A stretch of DNA of 64,000 nucleotides from Vicinamibacterales bacterium (GTDB lineage: Bacteria > Acidobacteriota > Vicinamibacteria > Vicinamibacterales > SCN-69-37). A program made the translations under genes and the position numbers. Below, in pieces: positions 3,454 through 60,331 of this stretch (positions are counted from its first letter, which is position 1; each line of letters starts with the position of its first letter). The stretch spans positions 441 to 64,440 of the forward strand of contig JBDSZL010000018.1 of assembly GCA_039925145.1 (NCBI GenBank). The letters run 5' to 3'. The notes below the pieces were generated by a model. It did not search any database. It saw nothing but the letters and a program-made list of their open reading frames with translations, and was not told the origin of the DNA.

Positions 3454-3904
3454 CTTCTGGGCCGTCGCGACGGCCGAGCTCGCTGGCACGACACAATCTA
3501 ACGAAGGAGCCGGTGACCATCTCCGTGTTATCGCGGTCGGCAAGCCCGTCGGCGGCCATCCTGCAAAAGAGACCGGCCACCACGGTGGTCACCGGGATCG
3601 GTGAGCCGACGTCACGCGCCAGGTTCTCGATCAAATCGAGATCCTTCACCATCAGTGCCGCACGACCGGTGTTCGAGAACTCCGACCCCACCATCTTCGG
3701 AAACATCTCCTGCAGCTGGCGCGAGTCCGCACGCCCGCCAGCCAGCGCCGCCAGAATCTGTGCGGCGTCAATCCCCAGCCGCTCGGCGAAGGCGCAGGCC
3801 TCGGCGAGCACGGCCACTCCGTGGACCGGCTCCGAGCTAACAGTCTTGTGACCCGCGATGTATCTGGTTAATACTAAATACAAGCCCGCGAGAAGCAGTC
3901 CCAA
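3413..3904 (-). pseudogene. C-terminal fragment of a 3-hydroxyisobutyrate/6-phosphogluconate dehydrogenase-family (HIBADH-like) gene
   Basis: Only the C-terminal all-alpha domain is present (AGHKTV..VLAEACAFAERLGIDAAQILAAL..MVKDLDLIENLARDVGSPIPV). The N-terminal Rossmann half would lie where the plus-strand VWA gene now starts. Confidence 0.5.
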
Positions 3905-13096: not shown

Positions 13097-13747
13097 CTAA
13101 TTGGGAATAGCATCGGGGATGTAGTCCGCGACGATGTGCGCGTGGCTATCGAACAGCACCATCCAGTGGCCGACGAAGCGATATTCGAGATCCTCGGCAA
13201 GTTCCGGTAACGTCTGCAGGACCTGCGGAGGCACGCTCGTGAGCGGAACGCTGTCGGGGTAGCGGCTGTTCACCCTCAGCTTCAGCGAGGAGGCGTTCAC
13301 GGTGTTTTCATCCATGATCGAGGACTTGAGCTGCTTGCCGTCTGGGCCCTCGAACACGCTGACAAGCAGGCGCTTAATCACGGGCGTCGCTTCGGGCGTG
13401 AAGAGGTCGCCCTGTTTCGCCGTTGCCCTCGCCTCGCGCATCTTCTTTTCGAATCTGCGCTGGCTCTGGTCCAACTGCTCTGGTGTGGCATCCTTCGGGA
13501 GCTTCGGCAGAGCGGCTTCGATACGCTGGTGCAGCTCCACGTAATCCCTCAGCCTGTCGTTCATCGTCGCGAGCGCCTGTGCATCGGCGGGGGTGAGGGG
13601 ACCCACGACGCGTTCTGTGGCGGGCGCTGACACCGGCGATGCCGTGGTGGCTGGGGGCGGAGGTGGCGTGTCGTTGCCCCTGCAACCGGCGGCGGACAAC
13701 GTGACGATAGAGAGAACGGTAATGGAGAAGTGCCGTGTTGTCGGCAT
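13097..13747 (-). CDS. Secreted lipoprotein-like protein of unknown function (paralog of 26167..26808)
   Basis: Signal peptide with LSAAGC lipobox. C-terminal ~140 aa are about half identical by eye to the 26167..26808 product (QGDLFTP, GKQL..S.MDEN, RYPD..PL...PP.VL..LP.L...LEYRF.G..., DYIP.A.P). Confidence 0.65.
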   Translation of the reverse strand: MPTTRHFSITVLSIVTLSAAGCRGNDTPPPPPATTASPVSAPATERVVGPLTPADAQALATMNDRLRDYVELHQRIEAALPKLPKDATPEQLDQSQRRFEKKMREARATAKQGDLFTPEATPVIKRLLVSVFEGPDGKQLKSSIMDENTVNASSLKLRVNSRYPDSVPLTSVPPQVLQTLPELAEDLEYRFVGHWMVLFDSHAHIVADYIPDAIPN

Positions 13748-13911: not shown

Positions 13912-14553
13912 GTGCCCATGCCTCATCGCATACTCCTGATCGGAGCGACGGGTCAGCTCGGTCGGCAAATCCTGGCACAGGCCCTCGAGCAGCGCCACAT
14001 GGTGACAGCTCTGGCGCGGCGCCCCGAGGTGCTGACGGTGGATCACCCGTTGCTGACCAGAGCCGCTGCTGATGTCGTCACGGATCCGGGCGGGCTCACG
14101 CGCCTTCTTCCCGGCCACGATGTGGTCATCAGCGCGCTCGGTCGCGGCCTGCAGCTGCGCTCCGGGAACCTGCTGGCTCGTGCCACGCCAATCATCGTGG
14201 ACGCGATGCAGCGCGCGGGGATCGGTCGGCTGGTCTTTGTCTCGGCGTTTGGCGTCGGCAACACCGCACCGGATGCGCCGTGGCTGCAAAGGCTGATGTT
14301 CCGCTCGATGCTCCGCAACATCTACGCCGACAAAGCCATTGCGGAGTCCGTCGTGATGCGCAGTTCGCTGAAGTGGACGATTATGGCGCCGACCATGTTG
14401 ACGAACCGCGCCGGGGTGGGCCGCTACAGGATCTCATCCGGGACGCCTCCAGCCGGCCCGTGGCGTCTGTCACGCGCCGATGCGGCGAGCGCGGTGCTTG
14501 CCTGCCTGGACGATCCCACAGCGATCGGGCAGCGTCTTACCGTTGGGCCTTGA
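13912..14553 (+). CDS. NAD(P)H-binding oxidoreductase (NmrA/atypical SDR-like)
   Basis: ILLIGATGQLGRQIL Rossmann motif; size about 210 aa. Confidence 0.7.
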   Translation: MPMPHRILLIGATGQLGRQILAQALEQRHMVTALARRPEVLTVDHPLLTRAAADVVTDPGGLTRLLPGHDVVISALGRGLQLRSGNLLARATPIIVDAMQRAGIGRLVFVSAFGVGNTAPDAPWLQRLMFRSMLRNIYADKAIAESVVMRSSLKWTIMAPTMLTNRAGVGRYRISSGTPPAGPWRLSRADAASAVLACLDDPTAIGQRLTVGP

Positions 14554-45884: not shown

Positions 45885-45930
45885 GCGGGAATCGAACCCG
45901 CACGTCGCTTGCGCGACTCAGGATTTTAAG
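45885..45930 (-). other. Orphan copy of tRNA-Leu(UAA) 3' part (anticodon loop through T-arm); att-type direct repeat
   Basis: 46 nt identical to 47484..47529. Identity stops at the anticodon loop on one side. On the other side it stops before the acceptor 3' strand, which can only be aligned if 4 Gs of a G-run are deleted. Confidence 0.8.
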
Positions 45931-47472: not shown

Positions 47473-47561
47473 TGGTGCCGGGGGCGGGAATCGAACCCGC
47501 ACGTCGCTTGCGCGACTCAGGATTTTAAGTCCTGTGCGTCTGCCAGTTTCGCCACCCCGGC
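47473..47561 (-). tRNA. tRNA-Leu (anticodon UAA), type II, CCA encoded
   Basis: Folded by hand: acceptor GCCGGGG/CCCCGGC, D-stem GCG/CGC, anticodon stem CAGGA/TCCTG with loop CTTAAAA, long variable arm GTCGC-GCAA-GCGAC, T-arm GCGGG-TTCGATT-CCCGC, then ACCA. Confidence 0.9.
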
Positions 47562-47589
47562 GTATGTTTAGAATCAATCACTTACACTG

Positions 47590-48699
47590 CTACGCGCCTC
47601 GCTTCTTGCCCCGTTTCTGGTCCAGTGTGCCCGAAAGTGTGCCCGCCGCCTGATCAATCTTCGCCGCCGCGTCTCTCAGTGCGCCGGCATCGACGATCGC
47701 ATACCGGCGGTAAATCGCCTCGGTCTTGTGGCCGACCATCGCCATTGCGGCCGACCGCGACACGCCGACGTGTTCGAGGTTCCGAACCGCCGTGCGCCTG
47801 AAGTCGTGCGGGATGCGCCCCGGCTGACCGGCAGCCACGCAGGCCGCCTGCCACGAGCCGCGCATGCTCTTAATCGGCTCGCCGTCACGGTGGAACACGT
47901 GGGGAACGATCTTGCCAGCCTTCTTGAGCCGCTTGTGATCGTCCAGTTGCGTGGTCAGCAACGCCTCCAGGGCAGCCGTGAACGGGTAGCTTCGGCCTTC
48001 CCGGTTCTTGGTCGTGCCAGGGTCGAGCCGCACGACACGGTTGTTCCAGTCGACCTGACGCCACTGCAAGGGCAGGATCTCGCTCTTGAGCCGCCAGCCT
48101 GTGATGTGCGCGAACGTCGCAACCGGCTGCAGCGCGGCCGGGAGGTGCGAGACCACACCGCGGAACTGTTCTGGCTCGAAGAACCCACGGCGGACGTTGT
48201 CCTCCTCGAGCATGGGAATGTGTGGCTTCGCGTGGAGCTTTCGATCCTTGACGGCCAGGGAGAACATCCGTTTCAGGACGGCGAGTTCACGATTGATCGT
48301 GCCATTGGCCGCACCCTCCGCTTGCCGCGCCGTGATGTACTCCCGGACCACTGATGTCGTAATCGCCAACAGCCGGCGGCCCTTGAAAGTGGGGGAGAGG
48401 TGTAGGTCGATGCGACGTTGCGCATCGCCCAGCGATCGCCGCCCGTTGATCTGGTAGTCGTTGATGATGTCCTTCGCCGCGTCCTCGAACGTAATGCGGC
48501 CCATCTTCGGCTCGATCGGCACGCCGTGCTCGACGTCGCCCTCTCGTGACCGGAGCATCCGGCGCGCCGCGCCTTCCTTCGTGCTGCCCGTGCTCTCTCG
48601 GACGGAGCGCCCATCCTGGTAGAACTTGATCCACCACGTCGGCAGCTCGCGAACGGTGCCGTCTGTCTGCTTCTTCGTGCGGCGGTAGATGCTACCCAT
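47590..48699 (-). CDS. int: Tyrosine-type site-specific integrase
   Basis: N-terminal SAM-like/arm-binding region. Catalytic C-terminus ...HDFRRTAVRNL...MVGHKTEAIYRRYAIV (R..HxxR..Y). Confidence 0.9.
   Translation of the reverse strand: MGSIYRRTKKQTDGTVRELPTWWIKFYQDGRSVRESTGSTKEGAARRMLRSREGDVEHGVPIEPKMGRITFEDAAKDIINDYQINGRRSLGDAQRRIDLHLSPTFKGRRLLAITTSVVREYITARQAEGAANGTINRELAVLKRMFSLAVKDRKLHAKPHIPMLEEDNVRRGFFEPEQFRGVVSHLPAALQPVATFAHITGWRLKSEILPLQWRQVDWNNRVVRLDPGTTKNREGRSYPFTAALEALLTTQLDDHKRLKKAGKIVPHVFHRDGEPIKSMRGSWQAACVAAGQPGRIPHDFRRTAVRNLEHVGVSRSAAMAMVGHKTEAIYRRYAIVDAGALRDAAAKIDQAAGTLSGTLDQKRGKKRGA
47624..47644 (+). promoter_or_regulatory. Two direct AGTGTGCCC 9-mers (candidate integrase arm-type sites, P' side)
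   Basis: 47624-47632 and 47636-47644, 12-bp phasing, about 100 bp from the core. They lie in the int 3' codons, giving the GTLSGTL peptide repeat. Confidence 0.45.
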
Positions 48700-48761
48700 G
48701 GGTTTCCGTCCGTTCTCCGCTCATCCCTGAGGCTGCCGACCGTAAGAGGGCGTCGAGCGCG

Positions 48762-49076
48762 TCAACCCGTTTGCTCTGGCCCGCTCACGTCCACCCCTCG
48801 CGACCACAACCACTGCACGACAACGGCGCTGCCTCTCGTTCCCGCGAGGAGCCTCGCACACGCGCTGTCCCGCGCGAGTGGACCCGGCGGCAGGTGGTCT
48901 TTGATCTCGCGTTGTACGGCGTTCCACTCGGTCGGGCTTGGTAGCCGCCGGTCCATCCGGTCGGCCCCCGTCCAGAGGACCGCGCCGTACCGCGCTTCGA
49001 GACAGAGCAGGCCCATGCCGGCAGCCCGCCCTGTCTCCAGCGACGACAACACAAAGCAGGTCGCCTGTAGTGTCAC
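48762..49076 (-). CDS. Hypothetical protein (island)
   Basis: GTG start overlaps the upstream stop (GTGA). High GC3 and protein-like composition. Preferred over the Arg-rich alternative frame. Confidence 0.4.
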   Translation of the reverse strand: MTLQATCFVLSSLETGRAAGMGLLCLEARYGAVLWTGADRMDRRLPSPTEWNAVQREIKDHLPPGPLARDSACARLLAGTRGSAVVVQWLWSRGVDVSGPEQTG

Positions 49077-49267
49077 TGTCTGGCTTCCTGTGTTTCGATC
49101 TGCCCAAGCAGCCCGCTGACGATCTCGTCCATCACGCTCACGGCTCGCGGCCTCAACCGGCAGAGCCGCTCAAGCTTGACATGCACCGTATCAAGGTCTC
49201 GCGTTGGGCTTGGAGTCGCGTCCAAACTGGTGATGGCTTCCATTCGGAATCGTCCATTGACGATCAC
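49073..49267 (-). CDS. Hypothetical small protein (island)
   Basis: 4-nt overlaps with both neighbouring genes. Confidence 0.4.
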   Translation of the reverse strand: MIVNGRFRMEAITSLDATPSPTRDLDTVHVKLERLCRLRPRAVSVMDEIVSGLLGQIETQEARQ

Positions 49268-49638
49268 TTCTCACCGCCTTTGAATGACGACGCGAACGGC
49301 TGAGGCCCGAGCCGCTTGCCGACAGCCACGCCGAGTCCGTACGCCAAGATCGTGTATGGCGCTAGGAAGGCATAGATGACGTCCGTAATCTCGTCTCGTT
49401 GATCGTTGGTTCGGGGGCCGATCAGCGGCAACAGGGTTTCGATGTTGAAGTTCACCACATCCGGCGCTATTTGAAACATGTGGTGCTCAACCCCACCGTC
49501 GCTAAACAAGGCGAGCGCACCCTCTCTCGCGATGAGGTTCGCCGCTGCGCCGTCTAAGCTGTCCACGTAGCGCAAGAGAGCGGCTTGGTTCTGGGGGGTC
49601 GGGAATGCCGGTTTGCCCGGCTTCGGTGCGGCGCTCAC
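49264..49638 (-). CDS. Hypothetical protein sharing a C-terminal motif with 49635..50024
   Basis: C-terminus AYGLGVAVGKRLGPQPFASSFKGGEK versus FTLGIAIGRRLGSAPLRSRKGGAK in the upstream gene. 4-nt overlap. Confidence 0.5.
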   Translation of the reverse strand: MSAAPKPGKPAFPTPQNQAALLRYVDSLDGAAANLIAREGALALFSDGGVEHHMFQIAPDVVNFNIETLLPLIGPRTNDQRDEITDVIYAFLAPYTILAYGLGVAVGKRLGPQPFASSFKGGEK

Positions 49639-50024
49639 TTCGCACCGCCCTTCCGCGATCGAAGGGGAGCCGAGCCTAGGCGCCGCCCGATGGCAATCCC
49701 TAACGTGAAGGCAGTATCGGTGCGCTCCGAGAGTTCGGCGATGTGGAGATCATCGAGCTGATTCACGTCCACAGCTCCTTCTGACTTGAGGTGTTCTTCC
49801 ATCCAGGCGCTGACTGCTTGTGCGGGCTTCGGGTCACTGAGTCGCTCCACTGCGGACGCGAGCGGCTCTGGGTCCTCCCCGAATACCCCGGCAGAGAGAA
49901 TCAGGCCGATGGCCTCGCGATCAAAGCGGCCTTCGAGGTCGTTAATGACGGAGTCGATGAACGTGTCCAGCGCTGTGTCTGCGGGGATCGTGGTCTTCTT
50001 TTGTTTTGGCATGGGCCTCTCCAA
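49635..50024 (-). CDS. Hypothetical protein sharing a C-terminal motif with 49264..49638
   Basis: See 49264..49638. Acidic, helical-looking. Confidence 0.5.
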   Translation of the reverse strand: MERPMPKQKKTTIPADTALDTFIDSVINDLEGRFDREAIGLILSAGVFGEDPEPLASAVERLSDPKPAQAVSAWMEEHLKSEGAVDVNQLDDLHIAELSERTDTAFTLGIAIGRRLGSAPLRSRKGGAK

Positions 50025-50087
50025 CGGAATGGAAGGCCGAGAGGCTACACTGACGCAGCCCTCGGCACGGGTACGACGTGCTACGGG

Positions 50088-50273
50088 TTAGGACCGCTTG
50101 CGGGTAGCAGCCCGCTTGCGGTCCGTCTTCTCTCCCTGGTCCACTAACCAACGATCGACGGCGATTCTGACTTGGCTCGAGATGGGCGCGCCCGTCTTTG
50201 CTTCGATCCGCCGCAACGCCTCGAGTTGTTCAGGCTCGAGGAGCATTTGAAATCGCTGTTTCGCAGGTGACAT
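50088..50273 (-). CDS. Ribbon-helix-helix (CopG-like) DNA-binding protein
   Basis: KQRFQMLLEPEQLEALRRIEAKTGAPISSQVRIAVDRWL is a typical RHH layout. First gene of the int-proximal operon. Confidence 0.6.
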   Translation of the reverse strand: MSPAKQRFQMLLEPEQLEALRRIEAKTGAPISSQVRIAVDRWLVDQGEKTDRKRAATRKRS

Positions 50274-50287
50274 AAAGAGGATGCTTA

Positions 50288-50316
50288 ACTATACACAACT
50301 ACGCTGATATAGTCAA
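50288..50316 (-). promoter_or_regulatory. Sigma-70-type promoter for the RHH operon
   Basis: Minus strand reads TTGACT-N17-TATAGT (50316-50311 and 50293-50288). Only 14 nt separate the -10 from the ATG at 50273, so the leader is very short with no SD. The -10 is part of an ACTATA/TATAGT inverted repeat. Confidence 0.5.
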
Positions 50317-50565
50317 CGACGAAACGGCTACGATTTCGCGCACACAGACAGACGAGCCGTGCTGCCCGAACACTTCGACGTCGCAGCCTGCGTGTTGTGG
50401 GTCACGAAGGGCGACGAGCCAGACGCGAAGGTGTAACGGAGGCGGCCTCGAAACCAAGGCCCCGCTCGTGTGCTAGCATCTCCGCTCTTCACTGCCCCTG
50501 GGTCGGTTTCAGGCTGGCTAAGTGCGACTGCCCCTCGCTTCGCGCGGAGAAGGCTATTCCATCCG

Positions 50566-51804
50566 ATGTCGACATCAGCGATTCCCTTTTTCGGCGCCCG
50601 CAAGCTTGCTCGTCAGCTTCAGGAGCAGGTAACGGACCTCACCGCTCAATTGGAGCGTACGGATGCCTTTGCCGTGGGCGAACTGGAGCGCCTAAAGGTG
50701 CGCCTCGAACAAGACGTTGCCGGCCTACGGGCGCAGCTTGCCGAGGCCCAAACGCTCATTGTTTGTACGGACGAAACGGCGTCCCTTCAAGAAGTCGGTG
50801 TATACGAATATCGTCATCCTCTATCTGTTGCCGCGGCATACCGCGATCGTCTAGAGGCCATCCAACGGCAAATCAAGGAAATGAATAGGGCCGACGCCGG
50901 TGCGATTCTGGCAAGCGCAGACTGGAAGGTGAACGGGTCGCTCGTGGAGGGCCGCAAAATGGTCCGGCAGTTCTCGAAGCTGATGTTGCGGGCGTTCAAC
51001 GCGGAGGCCGACACGCTCGTCAGGGGCCTGAAGCCGTATGCACTCGACAAAGCGGTTGAACGACTGCATAAGACGGCCCACACGATTCAGCAACTCGGCC
51101 AGACTATGCAGATCAGTGTCGCGCCTGCGTACCTGAAGGTTCGCTTCTTCGAACTCACCTTGACGGCTGATTTCCTGCAGAAAAAGGCTGAGGAAAAAGA
51201 GGTTGAGCGCGTCGAACGCGAACGCCTGCGTGAGGAACGAAAGGTGCAGCTCGAAATTGAGCGCGAGCAGGCCAAGCTTGCGAAAGAGCGTGAGCACTAC
51301 GAGCGGGCGCTGGCCGCGCTATCTGCCATCGGCGGCGCCGACGAGGCCATCGCGAGGCTCAAGAGCCAGCTGGATGACGTCGACAAGGCCATCGCAGATA
51401 TGAACTACCGCGCTGCGAACATTCGTGCGGGCTACGTCTATGTGATCTCAAACGTCGGATCGTTTGGCGACAACATCGTGAAGATCGGACTCACGCGGCG
51501 TCTTGATCCGCGAGACCGGATTCGCGAGCTCAGTGATGCGTCCGTCCCATTCAACTTCGATGTGCATGCCCTCTTCTTCTCCAAGGACGCGGTCGGGATA
51601 GAGACAGCCTTGCACAACCAATTCTCCGCTCAGCGCATGAACCTCGTAAACCGCCGGCGGGAGTTCTTCAGGGCGACGGCCGCTCAGGTGAGAGGGGCCC
51701 TAGTCTCCCTTGCTGGAGACCTCCTGGAATTTGAAGACATAGCTGAGGCCCTCGAGTATCGACAGTCCGAACACGTCAGAACAGGGACCACGACGGCGAA
51801 CTGA
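50566..51804 (+). CDS. DUF4041 plus T5orf172 (MUG113, GIY-YIG-like) domain protein
   Basis: Coiled-coil N-terminal part (EKEVERVERERLREERKVQLEIEREQAKLAKERE). C-terminus GYVYVISNVGSFGDNIVKIGLTRRLDPRDRIRELSDASVPFNFDVHALFFS is the T5orf172 signature. Confidence 0.7.
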   Translation: MSTSAIPFFGARKLARQLQEQVTDLTAQLERTDAFAVGELERLKVRLEQDVAGLRAQLAEAQTLIVCTDETASLQEVGVYEYRHPLSVAAAYRDRLEAIQRQIKEMNRADAGAILASADWKVNGSLVEGRKMVRQFSKLMLRAFNAEADTLVRGLKPYALDKAVERLHKTAHTIQQLGQTMQISVAPAYLKVRFFELTLTADFLQKKAEEKEVERVERERLREERKVQLEIEREQAKLAKEREHYERALAALSAIGGADEAIARLKSQLDDVDKAIADMNYRAANIRAGYVYVISNVGSFGDNIVKIGLTRRLDPRDRIRELSDASVPFNFDVHALFFSKDAVGIETALHNQFSAQRMNLVNRRREFFRATAAQVRGALVSLAGDLLEFEDIAEALEYRQSEHVRTGTTTAN

Positions 51805-51964
51805 AGAATAAGGCAGCCGCGAACGTGACACGACTGGCATCTCGCAGCCGGGCCCCGCATCAGAACGGGGCTACTGCTTCGCACAGACCAGACACACGAA
51901 CGCCTCAATACGTAGTCCCGCTGGATCAGCAGGTCCTCGCCACAGCCAGGACAGCGCGGGATCA

Positions 51965-52246
51965 TCACAAGCGCTCGATGACCGGCACGCGACATCGGGT
52001 CGGAAACCTCCACACCTCGATCGTCGCGTTCCGCGGCCGGACCATGATCTGCAACGCCTCGCGCTCGATGCTGCTGGCGTAGCGGCTGCCACTCTTCACA
52101 CTGACGAACCGGATCGACGTAGCATCCCACGCGACCAGATCGCACGGCCCCTTCGAGCCCGCCGAGCGCGTGACGTGGAACCCATCCGCTTCCAGCAGCC
52201 GACGAGCCCGATGCTCAGCCCGCCGGCCCTTGTGCGCGCAGTTCAT
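51965..52246 (-). CDS. PD-(D/E)xK-fold nuclease, Hjc-like resolvase candidate
   Basis: KGRRAEHRARRLLEADGFHVTRSAGSKGPCDLVAWD...FVSVKSG (E...D...xVK layout). Start ATG 52246 overlaps the upstream stop (ATGA). Confidence 0.5.
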   Translation of the reverse strand: MNCAHKGRRAEHRARRLLEADGFHVTRSAGSKGPCDLVAWDATSIRFVSVKSGSRYASSIEREALQIMVRPRNATIEVWRFPTRCRVPVIERL

Positions 52247-52443
52247 GGACGGTCCCAGTCGAGGGTCGCCCCGCTGATCGCCCGCTCCGCGCGGCGCGCG
52301 CGGCGACAGTCCGGGCAGCGCCGCGGAAGTGATAACTGCTTCGCCTCGAAAAATGCCGCTTCGCCCTCCGTGACGGTGAACGGCGTGGTGCAGTCGAGAC
52401 ACAGGCGCTGCTCTAACACGGTCTGGTTTCGTGGGAGCGTCAT
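52243..52443 (-). CDS. Zinc-ribbon protein
   Basis: CLDCTTPFTVTEGEAAFFEAKQLSLPRRCPDCRR. Confidence 0.55.
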   Translation of the reverse strand: MTLPRNQTVLEQRLCLDCTTPFTVTEGEAAFFEAKQLSLPRRCPDCRRARRAERAISGATLDWDRP

Positions 52444-53237
52444 CGGTGCGTCCCGCGCGCCATCGCTTCGCCTTCCGGCGAACTCCCAAAGACCGGCTCT
52501 TTGCGGGGTGCCGCCGCTGGTTCCTCCGGGACCGGGGCATAGCCCGTGCCGTCGAGCTCGTGCTGCGCCATGTTCACCGCCGTCGAGAGCGCCGTGTACC
52601 GCTGATTGAGGCCATCGAGATATTTCGAGACCGGGCTCTTGGCGACCTTGACCTCTGTGGCCTTGGCGCGCTGCTCAGCTGTGACGAGCGCGAACGTGCC
52701 ACCAGGTCCCGCCTCAACGGCTTCAACGAACACCGGATCGCTGCCGTCCTGGACAGCCGTGATGTACCGCTCATACCGTTCTTCCGGTGTGAGTCCTCGC
52801 AAGAGGCTTCGATACTCCGCTTTCAGCAGCTCGCTCGCGATCGTGGGCTCGGCGGGTTTCTGCGCCGGCTCCCATCCCGCCTTGCTCTTGACATAGCCTT
52901 CAGCGGCCAGACGCCGCCCATCCGTCCACTGTTTGTGCAGCTCGGCCGCGTGCTTGCGAAACGCCGTCAAGTCTTCGTCGAGCTTCGCGCGGATCTTGTC
53001 GATCGCCGTCGCCTTGCCGCGCTCGGTGAGATCAGGATTGACGAGAATCTTGTCCACCGCGCGCCAACTGTCATCCACAAACGCCGAGATGTTCCCGACG
53101 GCGTTCACGGTGTACGTTTTTTCGTCCTCGGTCATACCTTCGTGCGCGGCCCAATTTCTCGCGTAGCCCGCCGCCATCGAGCGGATGAAACTCGCGCCCC
53201 GTTTCGGGGCCTTCCCGTTGTTCGCGTTGTTTGCCAT
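52440..53237 (-). CDS. Phage-type protein of unknown function
   Basis: Follows terL with a 10-nt gap. At 265 aa it is too small for a portal. No domain recognised. Confidence 0.5.
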   Translation of the reverse strand: MANNANNGKAPKRGASFIRSMAAGYARNWAAHEGMTEDEKTYTVNAVGNISAFVDDSWRAVDKILVNPDLTERGKATAIDKIRAKLDEDLTAFRKHAAELHKQWTDGRRLAAEGYVKSKAGWEPAQKPAEPTIASELLKAEYRSLLRGLTPEERYERYITAVQDGSDPVFVEAVEAGPGGTFALVTAEQRAKATEVKVAKSPVSKYLDGLNQRYTALSTAVNMAQHELDGTGYAPVPEEPAAAPRKEPVFGSSPEGEAMARGTHR

Positions 53238-53247
53238 TTCTGTCTCC

Positions 53248-54672
53248 TCAGAATCCTCTCAATTGAATCGCGCCGCCGCCGTTGCCCCCACCGGCCGCGG
53301 TCAGTGTCAGCGCGCCCGCGGCCGCATTCGCCACGTCCTCATGCATTCGTGGCGGTGCGTCCACGCTGTCTTTGCCCTGCCGGCCCTTGCGGCGTTCCAG
53401 CGAGCCGAACTGCTTCAAGAGCCGCGGGTGATCGAGCAGCTCCACTTGGCCGCTCATGACTGCGGGCAGCACGGCCAGGTACAACTCAGAGCGCGTACGC
53501 TCGGACGGTTTGACCGTGATCCCCACCTTCGAGAACGCTTCAACGGGCCAGTGCCCAGCAAAGCGATCAGAGGTCGCCGTGGTGACGCGATACGCCTTCA
53601 TCGTGGCGGCGAACTCCTGCACCGTCGCTTCCGGCGAGAACGGCGGCCGCTGCTCACGCACGAGATCGAGCACGGCCACCGAGCCGTGACGGTGAGCAAT
53701 CGCGAGCGTCATCGAATCCGCTCCCGTGCCCCCGGCTGGATCGAGAAACGCGGTGTACGTGATGCCGTACTGCGGCGGCTGCTCGAGCCGCCCAATCATC
53801 CGCACCGCCTCCAACGCTTCAGGCGGCAAGAAGGCTTCCACGTCGCGCCGCCACTCGCCGCCCCACTCCGCAGACGCAGCAACAGGGTCGTCGGCGTACG
53901 CGGCCTCGATGACGGCCAGCTCAATACTCGGATTCAGCAACAGCGTCGGCGCATTCACCACCAGCACGCGATCACTGTCGTCTTTGCCGTAGAAGCGCTC
54001 GTACGTCCTCCAGGCTTCGCCGCGCCGCGCGTAAGGCGATGTGATGCACACAAGCAGCGCCTCGGGGACCGTGCCCATCGCGGCACGCAACGCGACGAGC
54101 ACTTCTCGGTCAGGGTTCGCGCTGTCCTCCGAATCCCAAAACGCAATTTCATCGCACGTCGCGCCGATGCAGGTGTAGCCGCGCAGCGAGCGGTACGAGT
54201 TCGTGTGAATCTCAATCACCACGCCGCTGGTCAGCGTGATCGCGTCGGCGGTTTCATCCTCGACTAAGGCGGCGAGCACGGGCGTCGAATGGAGCAGTCC
54301 GCTCACGTAGCGCTTGAGGACGCGTGCCTGCCGGCGATCGGCTGCGAGGACCATGAACACGCCCACTTCACCTGGTGCGAGCGTGTATGTGCGGCACGTG
54401 GTCGCCCAGACCGCCAGCGCTGCGCTAATGATGGACTTGCCCGAGCGCCGGCCGCAGATGATCCAGAGTTCGGCGAGTGTGGCCGGGACGGTCGAGCGCC
54501 CCGTGAGCTGGTGCATGAGCGCGCGCCCATCGTCATCGAGCGCGCCGAGCCCGTCATCGATCGCCGTGAGCAGCGTGCGCCACGCGTGCCAACTGTCGCC
54601 CGCGAACGTCCCACTGAGCACGCCCGTCATGAGCCGGACGATGGAGCCGAGCGTGGTGGAGACGCGGCTCAT
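53248..54672 (-). CDS. terL: Terminase large subunit
   Basis: Walker A CGRRSGKS, Walker B-like TCDEIAFWD, and C-terminal RNaseH-like nuclease FLDPAGGTGADSMTLAI. Confidence 0.75.
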   Translation of the reverse strand: MSRVSTTLGSIVRLMTGVLSGTFAGDSWHAWRTLLTAIDDGLGALDDDGRALMHQLTGRSTVPATLAELWIICGRRSGKSIISAALAVWATTCRTYTLAPGEVGVFMVLAADRRQARVLKRYVSGLLHSTPVLAALVEDETADAITLTSGVVIEIHTNSYRSLRGYTCIGATCDEIAFWDSEDSANPDREVLVALRAAMGTVPEALLVCITSPYARRGEAWRTYERFYGKDDSDRVLVVNAPTLLLNPSIELAVIEAAYADDPVAASAEWGGEWRRDVEAFLPPEALEAVRMIGRLEQPPQYGITYTAFLDPAGGTGADSMTLAIAHRHGSVAVLDLVREQRPPFSPEATVQEFAATMKAYRVTTATSDRFAGHWPVEAFSKVGITVKPSERTRSELYLAVLPAVMSGQVELLDHPRLLKQFGSLERRKGRQGKDSVDAPPRMHEDVANAAAGALTLTAAGGGNGGGAIQLRGF

Positions 54673-55256
54673 TGCCCGCCTCGCATGACTTGCTCCAACG
54701 TGGCGACCGGCTTCGGTTTCCGGGAGAGCCCCAGCTGATTTGTGAGGCGTGCGAACTGAGCCAACACACCGAGGTACGCCGTCAACGCGGCACGCTGCCG
54801 GCCTTTGGCAGTCAAGGTGCCGTTGACGAGCAAATCTTGGCCGAGCGCTTCGAGGATGACTTCTAAGCGCGCCGCCTCACGGACCGTCGCCGTCGACAGG
54901 TGTGACAACTCATCAGAGCCGCCCAGATCCCCTGTAATCAACGCAACAGCCTCAGCGTGCCATTGGCCCACTTCGGGCGCGTCGATCAACTGGCGCGAAC
55001 GTAGGCCCGTTTTGAGCGCACCGCCGTTCCCCATCCCGAACCGGCCATTGCCTTCGCGCCCTCGATGGCGGATGGCACCGACGGCCTTGCGGGCTTCCTC
55101 GAACAGTTCAGGGCCAGCGGCCGGGAGTTCCGCGAACGGTGGAGCAGCGCTATTATGAGTGGGCACACTGCGGGCACACTCTAGTGAGTTCAGGCCCATT
55201 TCATCGGCCTGAATCACAGACGCGCAGGACTGACTATCCTGTGCGAGCTTAGACAT
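54669..55256 (-). CDS. terS: Terminase small subunit candidate
   Basis: GNGGALKTGLRSRQL ... TAKGRQRAALTAYLGVLAQFARLTNQLGLSRKP resembles actinophage-type TerS. 4-nt overlap with terL. The true start may be as late as ATG 55034. Confidence 0.45.
   Translation of the reverse strand: MSKLAQDSQSCASVIQADEMGLNSLECARSVPTHNSAAPPFAELPAAGPELFEEARKAVGAIRHRGREGNGRFGMGNGGALKTGLRSRQLIDAPEVGQWHAEAVALITGDLGGSDELSHLSTATVREAARLEVILEALGQDLLVNGTLTAKGRQRAALTAYLGVLAQFARLTNQLGLSRKPKPVATLEQVMRGGQ
55161..55180 (-). promoter_or_regulatory. Two AGTGTGCCC 9-mers in opposite orientation to the att-proximal copies
   Basis: Plus strand reads GGGCACACT at 55161-55169 and 55172-55180 (11-bp phasing), upstream of or inside the 5' end of the terS candidate. 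Confidence 0.35.
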
Positions 55257-55629
55257 ACTTGGCTCCCGTTTGCTGAGGTGAGATAGAGGGTGTGACCGCT
55301 CGCTTTTGGGTCTGTCCTGGCCCGTCCTTCAGGCTCTCGATGAACGCGTCCAGGTCCGCCCGGTCAATCACCACACGTCGCAGGCTTGTCTTGGGCCTGT
55401 CGCCTTCTCTGGCTCTGAGGGCAGGAAGGTGAATGAGTGGCAGTCGTCCAGCGAGCGCCCAGTCACGAACTGTCCATGCGCTCACGTTGAGGTACTCGCC
55501 GGCTTGCTTGAGGCTCAGCAGCCGTGGTGTGACAGCTTCTTTTTGAACCTGACCTGACAGCCCCCTTAAGAGGGGGGCAGTTGTCATGTCACGAGTTGTG
55601 TGACGTGTGTCACGGGGTGTCAGTGACAT
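55249..55629 (-). CDS. Excisionase-family / MerR-like helix-turn-helix DNA-binding protein
   Basis: LLSLKQAGEYLNVSAWTVRDWALAGRLP. Confidence 0.6.
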   Translation of the reverse strand: MSLTPRDTRHTTRDMTTAPLLRGLSGQVQKEAVTPRLLSLKQAGEYLNVSAWTVRDWALAGRLPLIHLPALRAREGDRPKTSLRRVVIDRADLDAFIESLKDGPGQTQKRAVTPSISPQQTGAKYV

Positions 55630-55632
55630 GTG

Positions 55633-56913
55633 TCACGCACTCCTTTCGAGCAACGCCACGCGGCCATCAGTGCCACGTGCGAACAGCCGAACTTTGTTCC
55701 GGCGTCGAGCGTCGTCCTCGTCACGGCGTAGGGTTTGAATAATGCTGTTTGCCTTGACGCCGAGTTCTTCGGCCAAGTCCTCGATGGGACGTGGGCCGGC
55801 CTGGAGGCTGTAGCGAAGCCGCTGGCGAATGGGGAGGTCGGCCGCGATGTCCTCGATGCCGGCGGGGTTCACTTGCCGGATTGTGATCTCGTCGCCCGTG
55901 AACAAGTATTCGATGGCGGCCGGCGGCCGCGGTTGCCCGTTGGTCTTCCGCTGAGTGATAGCCGTCACGAGTGCGCGGGGATCGTGGTCGCTGTTGCTGC
56001 GTCGAAAGTGGTAGATGTCGCGGCCGCCGGCATACCAGAGCACGGAGCCGAACGGGTAGCGGTCGCCGCCCTCGCCTTTGGACTGGTGCGCCACGAGCAG
56101 CAGCCCAATCCGAAGCTGTCGGCACGCCTGCAGGAAGGCGCTGGCAACCTCTGCAGACTCAGGGGGGCCAGAGACGCCAAACGAGACACTGTCGATCACG
56201 GCATAGTCCCATCCGTCGTTGATGACGGCACGCCGCAGGCTGTCGATCTCGGCGACGAGTGGGCGCTCAACGCGGATGTAGCGGATGTCGGGAAACTGCG
56301 GGCCATACATCCCCCGCGCCCGCTTGCGGTGTGCCTCTGGGCCCCACTCAAAATCGATGTAGCCGACACGGCGTCCAGTCCGGCGCGCCTCCAAAGCCAC
56401 ACGCTCAGCCTGCAGGGTCTTGCCGCTGCCAGGGAGACCGTAGAACATCGATATCTGCGTGAGGTCCAGGGTGAGCCCGTCGCACTCGAACAGTGACGTG
56501 CGCTCGTCGCTGTCTTCGATGTCGTGCAGGCTGACGATGGCGGAGGCCGAACGCTCAGCTTCTAGGACGCGAATACAGGCGTCCTCGACCAGCCTTGAGA
56601 CGGGAATATCTGAGAGCATGGCCTCGCGCGTGATGCGTGTTGCCCGCTCGGACCGTGCCCGGTCGCTACTCACGTTGAAGGTAGCCTGCGAGACGATGTC
56701 GCCAGAGACCGTTTGTACGCCGGGCAGCGCACAACGTACGGTCAGTTCACAATTCAGCTCGTCCCATTTCCAGCGCAGCCGATCAAAAGTGAAGGTCAGG
56801 CCGATGCTGTTCGCCTCGTAGCGGTACGCCACGCCACGAGCGAGCACGACAAGATCTCGCGTGCCGCACTCCAGGAGCGTCAACCGCTCAGCCACGCTGG
56901 CGCTCACGCTCAC
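55633..56913 (-). CDS. RecA-like (AAA_25/RepA-type) replication ATPase with C-terminal winged-helix
   Basis: Walker A GLPGSGKT, Walker B DYAVIDS, LLLVAHQSKG. C-terminus IEDLAEELGVKANSIIQTLRR. Confidence 0.65.
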   Translation of the reverse strand: MSVSASVAERLTLLECGTRDLVVLARGVAYRYEANSIGLTFTFDRLRWKWDELNCELTVRCALPGVQTVSGDIVSQATFNVSSDRARSERATRITREAMLSDIPVSRLVEDACIRVLEAERSASAIVSLHDIEDSDERTSLFECDGLTLDLTQISMFYGLPGSGKTLQAERVALEARRTGRRVGYIDFEWGPEAHRKRARGMYGPQFPDIRYIRVERPLVAEIDSLRRAVINDGWDYAVIDSVSFGVSGPPESAEVASAFLQACRQLRIGLLLVAHQSKGEGGDRYPFGSVLWYAGGRDIYHFRRSNSDHDPRALVTAITQRKTNGQPRPPAAIEYLFTGDEITIRQVNPAGIEDIAADLPIRQRLRYSLQAGPRPIEDLAEELGVKANSIIQTLRRDEDDARRRNKVRLFARGTDGRVALLERSA

Positions 56914-57238
56914 GCTCCCGAAGGTCGTCGATCGTCTGGTCCTTTTCGACCGTCAGCGCGACTGAGGCACAGAGTATGGCCTCAAGCATCTCAATACGCT
57001 CGGCCATACCAACGGCGGCCAGAGCTATCTGCTCGTCGCATGTCTCCGGGCCGGCCCCGCGCATTAGATCGAGGATGTGCTGCGCTGTGAAGCGATAGCG
57101 TTCGCCGCGCTCGGCTGCCGGTGAGAGTCCCCACCGGATATTGAGGCTGTCTGTTTGCGCGTCTGTTAGTATTGGGTTCATAGGCTGCGTCTCCACCGCA
57201 GCTTCGAGGCCGGCGCCATGCAAGTCCTGCAGGCGCAC
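56888..57238 (-). CDS. Hypothetical protein (island)
   Basis: ORF between the Cro-like gene and the ATPase. The start may be ATG 57181. Confidence 0.4.
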   Translation of the reverse strand: MRLQDLHGAGLEAAVETQPMNPILTDAQTDSLNIRWGLSPAAERGERYRFTAQHILDLMRGAGPETCDEQIALAAVGMAERIEMLEAILCASVALTVEKDQTIDDLRERERERQRG

Positions 57239-57253
57239 GGCCTCTCGCCGTTT

Positions 57254-57469
57254 CTAGGCGCTTATTGCTTTCTGCTCCGCGAAACACTCGCTGCCAGGCA
57301 CCCCGACGAGTTCGGCCAACTTGAGAACGCGTTCGTCGCCTTCACGCGGGTCATAGATCCCGCAGATCCAGGCACTGAGGGTTCCGTGACTGACACCAAT
57401 CTCGCGCGCCAACTGGTACTGACGCGACGTATGTCGCCGAACGGCGGTAATCAGGCGGTCACTCAACAT
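57254..57469 (-). CDS. Cro/XRE-type HTH regulator
   Basis: TSRQYQLAREIGVSHGTLSAWICG. Confidence 0.65.
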   Translation of the reverse strand: MLSDRLITAVRRHTSRQYQLAREIGVSHGTLSAWICGIYDPREGDERVLKLAELVGVPGSECFAEQKAISA

Positions 57470-57563
57470 CGGGGTAGCTCCATGCCGGCTATGTCATCAA
57501 AAGCAAAAACACTCTGCAATCTGTTTTACAATTGATGAACCCATGACAATGGGAGGAGCACAA
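57470..57563. promoter_or_regulatory. Divergent switch region between the Cro-like and CI-like genes
   Basis: AT-rich relative to its surroundings. Inverted repeat TCATCAA (57494-57500) / TTGATGA (57532-57538) and TGTCAT/ATGACA. Confidence 0.5.
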
Positions 57564-58184
57564 ATGAAACGGACTCGTGATGAGAAGTTGGCGCACGGAC
57601 GGTTTGCGATTGGGCCGCGATCGTCGTACTGGGTCGTACTGCCGTTCGCGGAGGGCTGGCTTGCGGCTCAGCGGCTCATGGTGCAGGAAAATGGTGCCGT
57701 GACGGTCGCTGAGTTGCGGGTCTATCCAGCAGAGGACAGGCGGCGCAAAGTCGGGCAGTGGTCGGAGTCGGCGGCGTCCATACCGAAAGGAGGTCTGTCG
57801 GCTTCGTTATTGCGGAGCCTCTCGGTGGGGGGAGCGGCCACGTCTCCCGTAGTGACCGACTGGGTTCAAGCGATGCTCAGCGAGACATTGCGCTGGCCTG
57901 CGCGTCATCGAGCGCTTGCGAAACGGGTCGCGCGTGACTTGGACCTACCGCGTGCGACAGACAAGAGTACCGTCCATCGACGCGGCCGAAAACCGTCACG
58001 AGATCGGGAGTTCTATCAATCGGTCGCCGCGCACTATAGGCGTTGGATCAGCGATAACCCTGCGAAGAAGATTGCAGAGACTCATGGCGTCAGCGGAGCA
58101 ACGGCTCGCACGTGGATTCACACAGCGCGCCATAAGTACGGACTGCTGGCAGCGACAGCAGCCGGGCGCCTGCCACCGAGCTAG
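57564..58184 (+). CDS. Putative repressor-like DNA-binding protein (C-terminal HTH)
   Basis: ATG 57564 behind GGGAGGAG. C-terminus AKKIAETHGVSGATARTWIHTARHKYGLL. Divergent from the Cro-like gene. Confidence 0.5.
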   Translation: MKRTRDEKLAHGRFAIGPRSSYWVVLPFAEGWLAAQRLMVQENGAVTVAELRVYPAEDRRRKVGQWSESAASIPKGGLSASLLRSLSVGGAATSPVVTDWVQAMLSETLRWPARHRALAKRVARDLDLPRATDKSTVHRRGRKPSRDREFYQSVAAHYRRWISDNPAKKIAETHGVSGATARTWIHTARHKYGLLAATAAGRLPPS

Positions 58185-58299
58185 AACAGGGAGGGTGTGC
58201 CGCCAGGGTCCCCATCGGGACCACCTACTTGTCGGCCCCGCCTAGCCATTTTCCGTTCAGTGCTGGATTAAACTTATGGGTGAACCGAGTAAATCGAAA

Positions 58300-58701
58300 T
58301 CAGCCCGGATCGGAAGGCGCAATCTCCCACGTTGGATCGATGGCTGCGAACAGGAGCGCCCGCCGACTGTTAACCTCAAGCGGACTCCCCTCAAGCCCAT
58401 GAACGTCCGTGTGGGCTCGGTTGTTGCGGTCCTCGTCGGGAGTGTGAACGACGGACAGGCCCTCGACCCCGCGCACTGCGGCAACCCCCAGTTTCACGAC
58501 ACCATAGTTGCTCGGAGGCTGCGGTCCGCATCCGCGGGTATGTCGAGCGGATGAGTATTTTCCCCAGTTGGTTGACATGCCACCCTCCCGGGACTTGAAT
58601 ACTGGAGGCTTCACAGCCCCTCCGGCCGCTTGGTGCTTGTGAACACGATAAAACAGGCAGCAAGAGTCAATGATCGGCTCTGGCTTCCACGGACGATCCA
58701 T
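58300..58701 (-). CDS. Cargo protein C, unknown function (133 aa)
   Basis: Third gene of a tight operon, 2 nt after gene B. LFYRVHK..GGMSTNWGKYSS..GVVKLGVAAVR..VVHTPDEDRNNRAHTDVHG. No family recognised. Confidence 0.55.
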   Translation of the reverse strand: MDRPWKPEPIIDSCCLFYRVHKHQAAGGAVKPPVFKSREGGMSTNWGKYSSARHTRGCGPQPPSNYGVVKLGVAAVRGVEGLSVVHTPDEDRNNRAHTDVHGLEGSPLEVNSRRALLFAAIDPTWEIAPSDPG

Positions 58702-58703
58702 CG

Positions 58704-59393
58704 TTATGAGTTGAGGGCCTGGACAGCAACAACGTACGAGTCATCATTGTCCAGGTACTCAGATTTCGTTAACTTGCCAGCCCGAACAAAGGAGAATGTC
58801 GGTGCGTGGGAAATGTCAGCGGCCGGGACGTTGATGAGAACGACAGTGGCTCCGTGGCTCCAAAAGACATCGATACTTCCTTGACCGTTCGGGGCGACCG
58901 AGGGAACGGGCAGGAACATCGAAATCAGATCGGCTGTGTCGGCGAGCTTCCGTAGAGTGGCGACAGCGTTCTGCCAAGTGGCCGCAGTTACTGCGGGGCT
59001 GCCCTCGCCATCCCAGTCGTCCGAGAGAGACTGAATCCAAGCTGATGAGCGGATTGCACGCTCTAGTTCCTTGCGCCAGGGAGAGACTGGCTCTCCGAAC
59101 CTCATGATCATCCGCTCGAGCGTCAGTTGCCTAACCGTCTCCCCGACGCTCGAAGTGTCAAGATTGACGACAGTGGGGCTACGAGTACCGAACTCGAATT
59201 GCTCCAGCAGTCGGGGCGAGATCGGCATCTCGGTGGAGTGCATCTTGCCTATTAGAGTAGAGGCGTCGTCCCACCTCAGGAGCGAGACGAGCCGCTCGAT
59301 GCCACCAGCGCCGTCTGACTCTAGTCCCAGTTCGATCTTGGGAAAGTCAGTTGGAGAAGCGCAGAGATCTACACCTTCAGTAGTCATTGCCAT
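58704..59393 (-). CDS. Cargo protein B, unknown function (229 aa)
   Basis: 10-nt overlap with gene A. C-terminal half SLSDDWDGEGSPAV...PVPSVAPNGQGSIDVFW. No family recognised. Confidence 0.55.
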   Translation of the reverse strand: MAMTTEGVDLCASPTDFPKIELGLESDGAGGIERLVSLLRWDDASTLIGKMHSTEMPISPRLLEQFEFGTRSPTVVNLDTSSVGETVRQLTLERMIMRFGEPVSPWRKELERAIRSSAWIQSLSDDWDGEGSPAVTAATWQNAVATLRKLADTADLISMFLPVPSVAPNGQGSIDVFWSHGATVVLINVPAADISHAPTFSFVRAGKLTKSEYLDNDDSYVVAVQALNS

Positions 59394-60064
59394 CCAAAGA
59401 GGTCCTTCTCGACATAACTAGAGAAATCCGTCATCAGTTCGGAGAACCTGCCGATCGCTGCTAGGCACGTCTCCGCACCGTCAACATCGATGTGATAGTT
59501 GGCCCTAACCAGAATCCCGTGACGCACCGTCGTGTGCGTCTCTCCCTCCATGCGAGTTACTTCGCGCGTCACAGTTCCCGCCGATAGCGTTGCGCGCATG
59601 TTTAGGCCGGCTCGCTGGTACCGGAACTGAAGCTCTGCGTCGGTTGGCCGCTGGCTTCCAGAGTTCCAGGCCCCTGGTTGAACAAACCTGTCTAACAGGT
59701 AGGTGGCGGCCTCGCCTTGCTCTTTGAAGGCAATGGGATTGCAACCAACACCCGTGTATTTCACTTTTGGCAGCGCCGCGACGTATGCCGCAGCGACTAC
59801 CGGCAGGACATCGACGGGCTTCGCCGAATCGATTTCCGGATCCAGACTGTCCCACTTCACGATGAGCCGTTGAGGTTCACAGCGGAAGGAAATCCCGCTG
59901 CTGAAACCGCACTTTGACAACGCTGGGGTGGAAAGGCCCTCGTCGATCACTTCCCAGTCAGCCGGCACAATGCCCTCTGCCTTCAGAAATGACGGGTGAA
60001 GAATCGACGGATTGTGGGCTGAAGCGACCACAACAACCATGGCCATAGGGATCTCGATCGACAT
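59384..60064 (-). CDS. Cargo protein A, unknown function (226 aa)
   Basis: First gene of the operon, next to attR. Beta-rich looking. No family recognised. Confidence 0.55.
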   Translation of the reverse strand: MSIEIPMAMVVVVASAHNPSILHPSFLKAEGIVPADWEVIDEGLSTPALSKCGFSSGISFRCEPQRLIVKWDSLDPEIDSAKPVDVLPVVAAAYVAALPKVKYTGVGCNPIAFKEQGEAATYLLDRFVQPGAWNSGSQRPTDAELQFRYQRAGLNMRATLSAGTVTREVTRMEGETHTTVRHGILVRANYHIDVDGAETCLAAIGRFSELMTDFSSYVEKDLFGWQ

Positions 60065-60121
60065 CTTGTTAAGGCCATTCTAGTCGCTGCGGAACCCCAC
60101 GCCGCGTATTAGGCCAGGACG

Positions 60122-60206
60122 GGTGTGCCCACGAGTGTGCCCACCGCCCACCCAAAGCCGTCATTCTCCACCCAACGGCAACCAAGTTGCGGCAGGGAGT
60201 GTGCCC
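60122..60206 (+). promoter_or_regulatory. Three (A/G)GTGTGCCC 9-mers (candidate integrase arm-type sites, P side)
   Basis: 60122-60130, 60134-60142 (12-bp phasing) and 60198-60206. They lie 128, 116 and 52 bp from the core, in the same orientation as the pair at 47624-47644. Confidence 0.45.
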
Positions 60207-60249
60207 GTAGAATCGACGTTTTCCCGCCAGTTCTGAGGCACGACAAGCC

Positions 60250-60288
60250 TTTTAAGTCCTGTGCGTCTGCCAGTTTCGCCACCCCGGC
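60250..60288 (-). other. Orphan copy of tRNA-Leu(UAA) 5' half (nt 1-39, acceptor 5' strand through the anticodon loop); attR repeat
   Basis: 39 nt identical to 47523..47561. Identity ends exactly at tRNA position +1 and at the loop. Confidence 0.85.
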
Positions 60289-60331
60289 TTAGGCGCGAAC
60301 CAGCAGTGTAGCGTGAGCGGGGGAGGTAGTT

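Follow-up and report, generated by a model that had tools for sequence, protein, structure and literature searches.

A 12,727-bp integrated element was found at a tRNA-Leu(TAA) gene in a 64,000-nt window of a soil Acidobacteriota genome of the order Vicinamibacterales (contig JBDSZL010000018.1, positions 441 to 64,440; all coordinates are window positions). It carries genes for integration, regulation and replication together with an intact large terminase subunit (TerL), and it had been described in an initial annotation as a phage-satellite-like island. The features that delimit the element and form its packaging module are as follows.

47473–47561, minus strand: tRNA-Leu(TAA) gene, the integration target (ARAGORN and sequence)
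47523–47564: attL, one copy of a 42-nt direct repeat (repeat comparison)
52440–53237, minus strand: o265, a 265-aa all-α protein of an unnamed family (profile search, AlphaFold2 model)
53248–54672, minus strand: TerL, 474 aa, intact (phrog_2, 3.4e-21)
54669–55256, minus strand: candidate small terminase subunit (TerS), 195 aa (position upstream of TerL)
60250–60291: attR, the other repeat copy, an orphan 5′ half of the tRNA (repeat and sequence comparison)

The left att repeat corresponds to the 5′ half of tRNA-Leu(TAA), from the anticodon loop to the 5′ end, and the two copies are identical at 41 of 42 nucleotides with a spacing of 12,727 bp. Because a repeat stands at both ends, the element is closed and nothing is missing beyond its edges, as had been proposed. 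An integrase and att sites enclosing an island of ~10–15 kb, the arrangement of the classical PICIs (phage-inducible chromosomal islands), are present, and the G+C content within the element ranges from 0.57 to 0.66 with its minimum at the right-hand cargo end.

TerL matches Pfam TerL_ATPase at only 0.005 and shares only ~25% identity with any TerL from a cultured phage. Its relatives number 1505 at E < 1e-5, ~60 of which are 63–70% identical and, where named, are proteins of Vicinamibacterales metagenome-assembled genomes. In an alignment of 24 relatives, the protein departs from none of the invariant columns. Walker A is retained as G74-R75-R76-x-G78, followed by K79-S80 (conserved at 90% or more), as are Walker B (D174-E175) and the nuclease aspartates D311 and D446. 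With all invariant family columns kept, TerL is not a remnant, and the possibility, raised at the outset, of an inactivated terminase was not borne out.

The 195-aa product belongs to a family whose genes immediately precede TerL, in most cases with an overlap, at 19 loci, some of them on portal-bearing phage contigs. It has no match in Pfam, PHROGs, NCBIfam, PDB sequences or cultured phages. Its conserved part spans residues ~85–195; in the AlphaFold2 (AF2) model residues 1–85 have low pLDDT, and the model is confident only for ~90–195, which are helical. A fold search placed HK97 TerS among the top matches (probability 0.89–0.97, TMt 0.48–0.59) with an r.m.s. deviation of 2.9 Å over 82 columns, at non-significant E values of 0.25–1.4. 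The ORF is therefore termed a TerS candidate on positional grounds: the conserved place upstream of TerL upholds the original assignment, the fold search is suggestive only and family searches gave no match. The first ~73 codons lack conservation, come out as disordered in the model and include a repeat pair (see below), and the real start is possibly the ATG at 55037, giving a product of 122 aa and leaving these codons untranslated.

All 20 products of the element were searched against Pfam and PHROGs and the ten unknowns against NCBIfam, with PADLOC also applied. Pfam, PHROGs and NCBIfam gave no match to a portal, capsid, protease or tail family, in agreement with what had been read from the sequence at the outset, and no lysis family was matched in Pfam or PHROGs. 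Portals and a major head protein were readily picked up by the same PHROG library when related loci were searched. The portal, major capsid, tail and lysis genes that a complete tailed prophage would have were not found in this element, which is closed by its att repeats. Of the products to be searched for portal or capsid folds, the 265-aa protein had been singled out. Its AF2 model, built from a 60-sequence alignment (pLDDT 82.8), consists of eight helices and zero strands, and neither the PDB nor BFVD gave a Foldseek match at E ≤ 0.001, the hits being no more than generic helical bundles; on account of this all-helical model and the absence of a fold match, o265 is not a portal or an HK97 capsid.

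These results also bear on whether the element is an autonomous, very small virus with shell proteins too divergent to recognise, which we regard as very improbable. Room for such proteins is left by nine ORFs of 64–229 aa without a family, the unmodelled 226- and 229-aa products among them; the predicted structures cover two products, o265 and the TerS candidate. However, the only ORFs above 270 aa in the element are the integrase, a PD-Lambda-1-type protein, TerL and an ATPase, compared with 476–1179 aa for the portals beside related TerLs. TerL-type terminases work on the portal vertices of tailed phages. Moreover, tail and lysis genes were not matched in Pfam or PHROGs, the best shell candidate is the all-α o265, and the unknowns at the cargo end are not conserved in relatives.

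At least 11 further loci (designated by L numbers) show the same compact layout without a portal, with differing att sites and replicases, the latter being of the Prim-Pol, DUF5906, AAA_25 and DnaB types. A shared plan of integrase, small regulators (HTH_3/31, HTH_17), replicase, TerS, TerL, one to seven small ORFs and then host genes was found in L001, L003, L005, L007, L046, L047, L048, L052 and L053. Both att ends were located for six elements of 9.4–17.6 kb, and no portal-sized ORF follows TerL in any of these six.

Window element: 12,727 bp, at tRNA-Leu(TAA)
L001: 12,902 bp, at tRNA-Leu(CAA)
L007: 17,572 bp, at tRNA-Cys
L053: 10,804 bp, at tRNA-Cys
L052: 9,441 bp, at tRNA-Arg(CCT)
L048: ~10.7 kb, at tRNA-Leu(TAA)

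In a maximum-likelihood tree, nine small-element TerLs of 63–70% identity form one clade with 100/99 support, and all nine sit in small integrase–regulator–replicase–TerS–TerL elements without a portal. The next branches are L051, then L052 (a small element) and L009 (portal-bearing). Portal-linked TerLs lie outside the clade, the closest being 53% identical, and IMG/VR TerLs of 41–53% identity are followed by portals (phrog_145, 146, 2662 and 113) and a major head protein. Since these distant TerLs adjoin recognisable portals and a major head protein, the clade descends from real packaging modules of tailed phages, and its monophyly over 30–37% divergence implies long persistence in small-element form.

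This persistence speaks against a cryptic, decaying prophage remnant that is immobile and has retained integrase, replication and terminase genes by chance, an explanation we consider unlikely. Independent decay would not be expected to repeat the same compact layout at Leu-TAA, Leu-CAA, Cys and Arg-CCT tRNA genes with different replicases; furthermore, the genes of the window operon are all intact and translationally coupled, the catalytic residues of TerL are all kept and the att repeats differ at only one of 42 positions. What a remnant would explain is the lack of any virion gene matched in Pfam or PHROGs, the lack of any sign of excision in the reads (one low-depth run) and the existence of degenerate relatives (L051 and L050).

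At L051 (10001–11575), a 56%-identical TerL stands alone between mirrored insertion sequence copies with IS110- and IS3-type transposases, beside a HEPN gene, and this locus looks like a wrecked family member. L050, with a truncated integrase, is a degenerate relative. Six IMG/VR contigs of 9–19 kb (L012, L014, L016, L021, L024 and L033) carry TerLs of 44–48% identity. Behind these TerLs come small ORFs or a head maturation protease, with a baseplate hub or tape measure protein further on; searches found no portal in these contigs, which may be other incomplete phage-derived elements. A wider census of 80 metagenome loci, judged by ORF sizes alone and not annotated, suggests that many more TerLs of this superfamily lie in short portal-less blocks.

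The family of o265 comprises 191 clusters of ~230–250-aa proteins and came only from an exhaustive profile search of 1.8 billion representatives, a word-indexed homologue search having returned nothing. No match to o265 was found in Pfam, PHROGs (also searched with 60 family members), PADLOC, PDB sequences or cultured phages. The family recurs downstream of TerL in L001, L005, L046, L047, L053 and L094, making o265 a regular partner of the packaging module. In L053 and L054 the o265-family gene is followed by a zf_Tbcl zinc ribbon, as in the window. At L054 (3957–6831) this pair lies behind a D5/DUF5906 primase and two unknowns without TerL; the o265–zinc ribbon pair can therefore travel without a terminase.

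In L001, L005 and L046 the gene before the o265 family matches phrog_206, "head scaffolding protein", at 1.7e-17. The cultured-phage counterpart of this scaffold homologue is gp09 of Xanthomonas phage Xp15, encoded between the portal and the major head protein; in the three elements TerS, TerL and the scaffold homologue are held, and the portal and capsid are gone. A relationship between o265 and this scaffold-like family was considered and rejected (hhalign probability 0.9%).

Among described satellites, the capsid-forming PICIs (cfPICIs) are small integrative islands with TerS and TerL that depend on a helper for the rest (PMC10085698, PMC10690885). As set out in SatelliteFinder, they are the only described class with terL, and capsid, portal and connector genes also belong to their definition (PMC10085698, PMC10690885). 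The window element resembles them in its TerL (phrog_2) and, by conserved position, its TerS candidate. It differs in that none of the cfPICI shell genes (major capsid protein, portal, protease, head-tail adaptor and connector) was found in Pfam or PHROGs, so that a helper would here have to supply capsids as well as tails.

With the classical PICIs (Staphylococcus aureus pathogenicity islands (SaPIs) and the EcCICFT073 type) the element shares a size of ~10–15 kb, site-specific integration, a divergent regulatory pair, an AlpA-like protein, a TerS of its own and defence cargo, with a replicase and iterons in the relatives L047 and L048. PICI capsid-remodelling genes are related to scaffolding proteins, a likeness seen here in relatives only. 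However, PICIs use the TerL of the helper, whereas the window family carries its own intact TerL, and apart from generic domains its genes are unrelated in sequence to those of PICIs.

P4-like satellites are similar in size (~11–13 kb), in integration at a tRNA gene and in an AlpA-type regulator, but P4 relies on the entire P2 terminase and contains cos sites. Among the window products, Pfam and PHROGs gave no match to a Psu, Sid, Delta or α-primase family. Sid and Psu of P4 are helical accessory proteins of ~240 aa encoded beside packaging functions, and the analogy with o265 is one of size and helical content only; the 50 best PDB matches listed give no fold match for o265, none reaching E ≤ 0.001.

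The environmental minimal satellites, namely VEIMEs (virion-encapsidated integrative mobile elements), PICMIs (phage-inducible chromosomal minimalist islands) as well as PICI-like tycheposons, likewise carry an integrase, AlpA, a primase and sometimes terS. In the papers on VEIMEs and tycheposons, the only such gene described is terS or one for a capsid, and TerL is not among them; packaging genes are lacking in PICMIs, which depend only on a DNA packaging motif (PMC11389934), and the Mycolicibacterium EPIP preprint gives a small terminase subunit among the conserved genes and lists no TerL. Phage Xp15 has the order TerL–portal–scaffold–major head. The family resembles it in a TerL of the phage superfamily and, in L001, L005 and L046, in the homologue at the scaffold position; it differs in lacking the portal and major head protein.

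A whole terminase of its own without shell genes is thus absent from the published descriptions consulted of PICIs, cfPICIs, P4-like satellites, PICI-like elements (PLEs), PICMIs, VEIMEs and tycheposons, which bears out the early remark that keeping both terminase subunits is unusual. The element is PICI-like in its working and falls outside the PICIs by its own TerL, outside the cfPICIs by the lack of shell genes, and outside the P4-like satellites. The Acidobacteriota have 0 occurrences in the 2023 satellite census paper (PMC10085698), and a literature search found no paper describing satellites in this phylum, in line with what had been stated from general knowledge. Size range and defence cargo match those of known satellites (PMC10085698, PMC9122126).

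The remaining genes of the element are as follows.

47590–48699, minus strand: tyrosine integrase, 369 aa (phrog_1, 1.9e-43; PF00589, 5.5e-14)
48762–50273, minus strand: five-gene operon, a ribbon-helix-helix (RHH) gene (50088–50273) and then unknowns of 129, 124, 64 and 104 aa
50470–51804, plus strand: PD-Lambda-1-type defence protein (DUF4041 and T5orf172), 444 aa (PADLOC, phrog_1847, Pfam)
51965–52246, minus strand: Hjc/Mrr-like PD-(D/E)XK nuclease, 93 aa from an internal ATG (PF01870, 6.3e-5)
52243–52443, minus strand: treble-clef zinc-ribbon protein, 66 aa (PF13451, zf_Tbcl, 1.6e-9)
55249–55629, minus strand: AlpA/excisionase-like HTH_17 protein, 126 aa (PF12728, 1.2e-7; phrog_66, 1.7e-10)
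55633–56913, minus strand: AAA_25 (RepA/DnaB-like P-loop) ATPase (PF13481, 2.7e-5, below cut-off; phrog_239, 1.3e-4)
56888–57469, minus strand: Cro-like HTH_3 protein (57254–57469; PF01381, 6.2e-5) and a 116-aa unknown
57543–58184, plus strand: 213-aa protein, divergent from the Cro-like gene (a repressor by position only)
58300–60064, minus strand: three-gene cargo of 133, 229 and 226 aa (G+C 0.57–0.59)

Nine same-strand genes run from 57469 down to 51965 with overlaps or gaps of a few bases and on these grounds form one operon, in the order Cro-like protein, 116-aa unknown, AAA_25 ATPase, AlpA/excisionase-like HTH protein, TerS candidate, TerL, o265, zinc ribbon and PD-(D/E)XK nuclease. All of them are intact and translationally coupled, the ATG of the nuclease, for example, overlapping the stop codon of the zinc-ribbon gene. 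The nuclease scores 23.3 bits against a PF01870 cut-off of 21.1. The ATPase is presumed to be a replication initiator or helicase and occupies the slot of the Prim-Pol, AAA_25 and DnaB genes in relatives; Pfam gave no primase domain in it. It had first been described as a RecA-like ATPase; the AAA_25 match is under the Pfam cut-off.

The Cro-like protein, which also matches several PHROG regulator families, and the 116-aa unknown are the first genes of this operon. Opposite them, the 213-aa protein had no match in Pfam, PHROGs, PADLOC or NCBIfam; its label as CI-like follows from position only. A homologue in L053 (3.4e-53) is placed likewise, adjoining the integrase and diverging from an HTH_31 gene. 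The divergent pair of HTH_3 and 213-aa genes, together with the AlpA-type protein (HTH_17/phrog_66), is the regulatory arrangement of PICIs. The integrase is 39–48% identical to the integrases of L001, L007 and L053.

The PD-Lambda-1 gene matches PADLOC PDLC03976 at 3.3e-112 over model positions 96–475 of 491, which was counted as a full-length match, and phrog_1847 at 7.7e-113; its true start is probably near 50566. The RHH gene matches PF12651 (RHH_3) at 5e-4, under the curated cut-off, and is preceded by a near-consensus promoter-like sequence (TTGACT-17-TATAGT, 50316–50288). The members of its operon are chained through short overlaps, and the 129-, 124-, 64- and 104-aa products had no family in Pfam, PHROGs, PADLOC or NCBIfam. 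The three cargo products were likewise without a match in these four libraries, as first reported, and the 229- and 226-aa products had none among PDB sequences. Overall, the integrase, RHH, DUF4041/T5orf172, Hjc-like nuclease, zinc ribbon, excisionase-like and Cro-like assignments made from the sequence were mostly confirmed by family matches, that of RHH below cut-off.

In relatives defence genes adjoin the terminase module, a type I restriction-modification system in L003/L004 (14226–21422) and a GmrSD-type nuclease in L046 (10415–11497), and this fits the idea of defence cargo. It raises the question of whether the element is an integrative defence island in which the terminase mainly sabotages the packaging of infecting phages, by cutting or mis-packaging, rather than moving the island. 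The PD-Lambda-1 protein, the unknown cargo operon, the PD-(D/E)XK nuclease and the GmrSD and restriction-modification genes of relatives would all accord with this, and satellites are known defence hot spots (PMC9122126). Interference alone, however, needs neither replication nor excision, whereas an integrase/excisionase set, a replicase (accompanied in relatives by iterons) and a TerS having its own conserved repeats of recognition type make up a self-mobilising kit. We consider sabotage as the main role decidedly improbable; a defensive role is in any case compatible with a satellite and not exclusive of it. A conjugative or mobilisable island was rejected, since neither a relaxase nor transfer genes were seen; a gene transfer agent-like cluster was rejected, as there are no head or tail genes.

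Short repeats were found at three places in the element.

47624–47644, plus strand: AGTGTGCCC pair beside attL, candidate arm-type sites
55161–55180, minus strand: inverted AGTGTGCCC pair upstream of the conserved part of terS
60122–60206, plus strand: three GTGTGCCC repeats beside attR

AGTGTGCCC occurs six times as an exact match in the 64-kb window, and every copy falls inside the element (0.44 expected), with a pair at attL, two or three copies at attR and the inverted pair by terS. In L053, whose integrase is 39% identical to that of the window, TGTGCCC pairs occur at the same three places (2723–2740, 7616–7633 and 13297–13314). In L048, CTTTAAC pairs do so (3649–3666, 9525–9542 and 14131–14162), and all seven copies of this motif in 21.7 kb are at these sites, distinct from an eight-fold iteron cluster behind the replicase. 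L007 has a weaker version. The att-arm motif is thus repeated upstream of terS in four elements; the three-site pattern is constant and the motif sequence differs between elements. The att-arm binder, be it the arm-binding domain of the integrase or the AlpA-like protein, is probably active at the terS leader as well, and the same binder at both would couple excision to packaging. Alternatively, the terS-leader repeats may be the recognition site of TerS. Iteron clusters directly after the replicase and before terS were observed in L047 (AGAGGGACTC x5, 4758–4952) and L048 (AAACAGCTTG x8, 8964–9103), a position that corresponds to the origin in PICIs; none was seen in the window.

The tRNA-Leu(TAA) sequence is present three times in the window, as the intact gene, as the orphan 5′ half in attR and as an orphan 3′ part at 45885–45930 (46 nt, 100% identical), 1.6 kb below the intact gene. 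Since the 5′ half of the tRNA is what the island duplicates, the 5′ half and promoter side of the working gene are island-derived. Such duplication of the 5′ half is unusual among tRNA-targeting integrases. In L048 the same tRNA gene is found with an orphan 5′ half 1.9 kb upstream (1559–1618 and 3476–3582; 87% identical) and with 3′-end repeats downstream, and in several genomes the tRNA-Leu(TAA) gene seems to be a hot spot for integration on both of its sides. The element is contained in a single public sequencing run, as low-depth contigs. A joint of 49343 to 57601 in these reads was dismissed, as one side comprises only 22 nt and the depth is foreign.

Taken together, the absence of shell genes, the intact TerL, the recurrent portal-less layout and the monophyly of the small-element TerLs support the original reading of a phage-satellite-like island. 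In the interpretation we favour, and hold to be reasonably probable, the element is helper-dependent and integrative, a phage satellite in the functional sense, derived from a tailed-phage head-packaging module that lost portal, capsid and tail and kept the terminase complete (TerS candidate and TerL). Several observations weigh against it. No helper phage was identified, the rest of the host genome not having been searched, and we know of no described satellite that docks its own TerL on a foreign portal. In the one public run that holds the element, attP and attB junctions were not found and the read depth inside it (4–7×, one low-depth run) is not above that of the flanks. TerS is assigned only by position and a non-significant fold resemblance, the unmodelled 226- and 229-aa products are big enough for a minimal capsid fold, and the window element is without the scaffolding homologue of some relatives. 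Finally, IMG/VR yielded no member of the close clade, a single-protein scan giving nothing and an alignment scan giving relatives of at most 53% identity.

If the element does work as a satellite, infection by or induction of a helper phage would flip the regulatory switch, upon which the integrase and the AlpA-like protein would excise the element and the AAA_25 ATPase would replicate it, with a single operon delivering replication, excision and a complete terminase. The site that TerS would recognise on the element perhaps lies close to the pair of repeats upstream of terS, and the element's TerL would dock on the helper portal and fill helper procapsids, while the nuclease may trim or resolve branched DNA. 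o265, and in relatives also the scaffold homologue, might alter helper capsid assembly or packaging, and o265 and the zinc ribbon could interfere with or adapt helper assembly. In SaPIs and P4, scaffold-like proteins redirect helper capsid size, which the scaffold homologue in L001, L005 and L046 recalls. PD-Lambda-1 and the cargo would protect the host and so pay for carriage.

A broader proposal, which we put forward tentatively and with a little less than even confidence, is that these elements constitute an undescribed satellite family, common in soil Acidobacteriota (Vicinamibacterales) and beyond, that takes finished procapsids and tails and brings its own complete terminase, together with the dedicated helical o265 family, sometimes a scaffold homologue, and a motif shared by att arms and terS that couples excision to packaging. 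Such a strategy would be the mirror image of that of the cfPICIs.

Known satellites either borrow the large terminase of the helper or build their own capsids. If the proposal is correct, a foreign motor docking on the helper portal would be a third way of hijacking a phage, and satellites would be extended to the Acidobacteriota, a soil phylum among the most abundant and the least tractable. The o265 family and the three-site repeat offer concrete, testable handles on the mechanism. With PD-Lambda-1 here and GmrSD and restriction-modification systems in relatives, the family could move immunity in soil communities.

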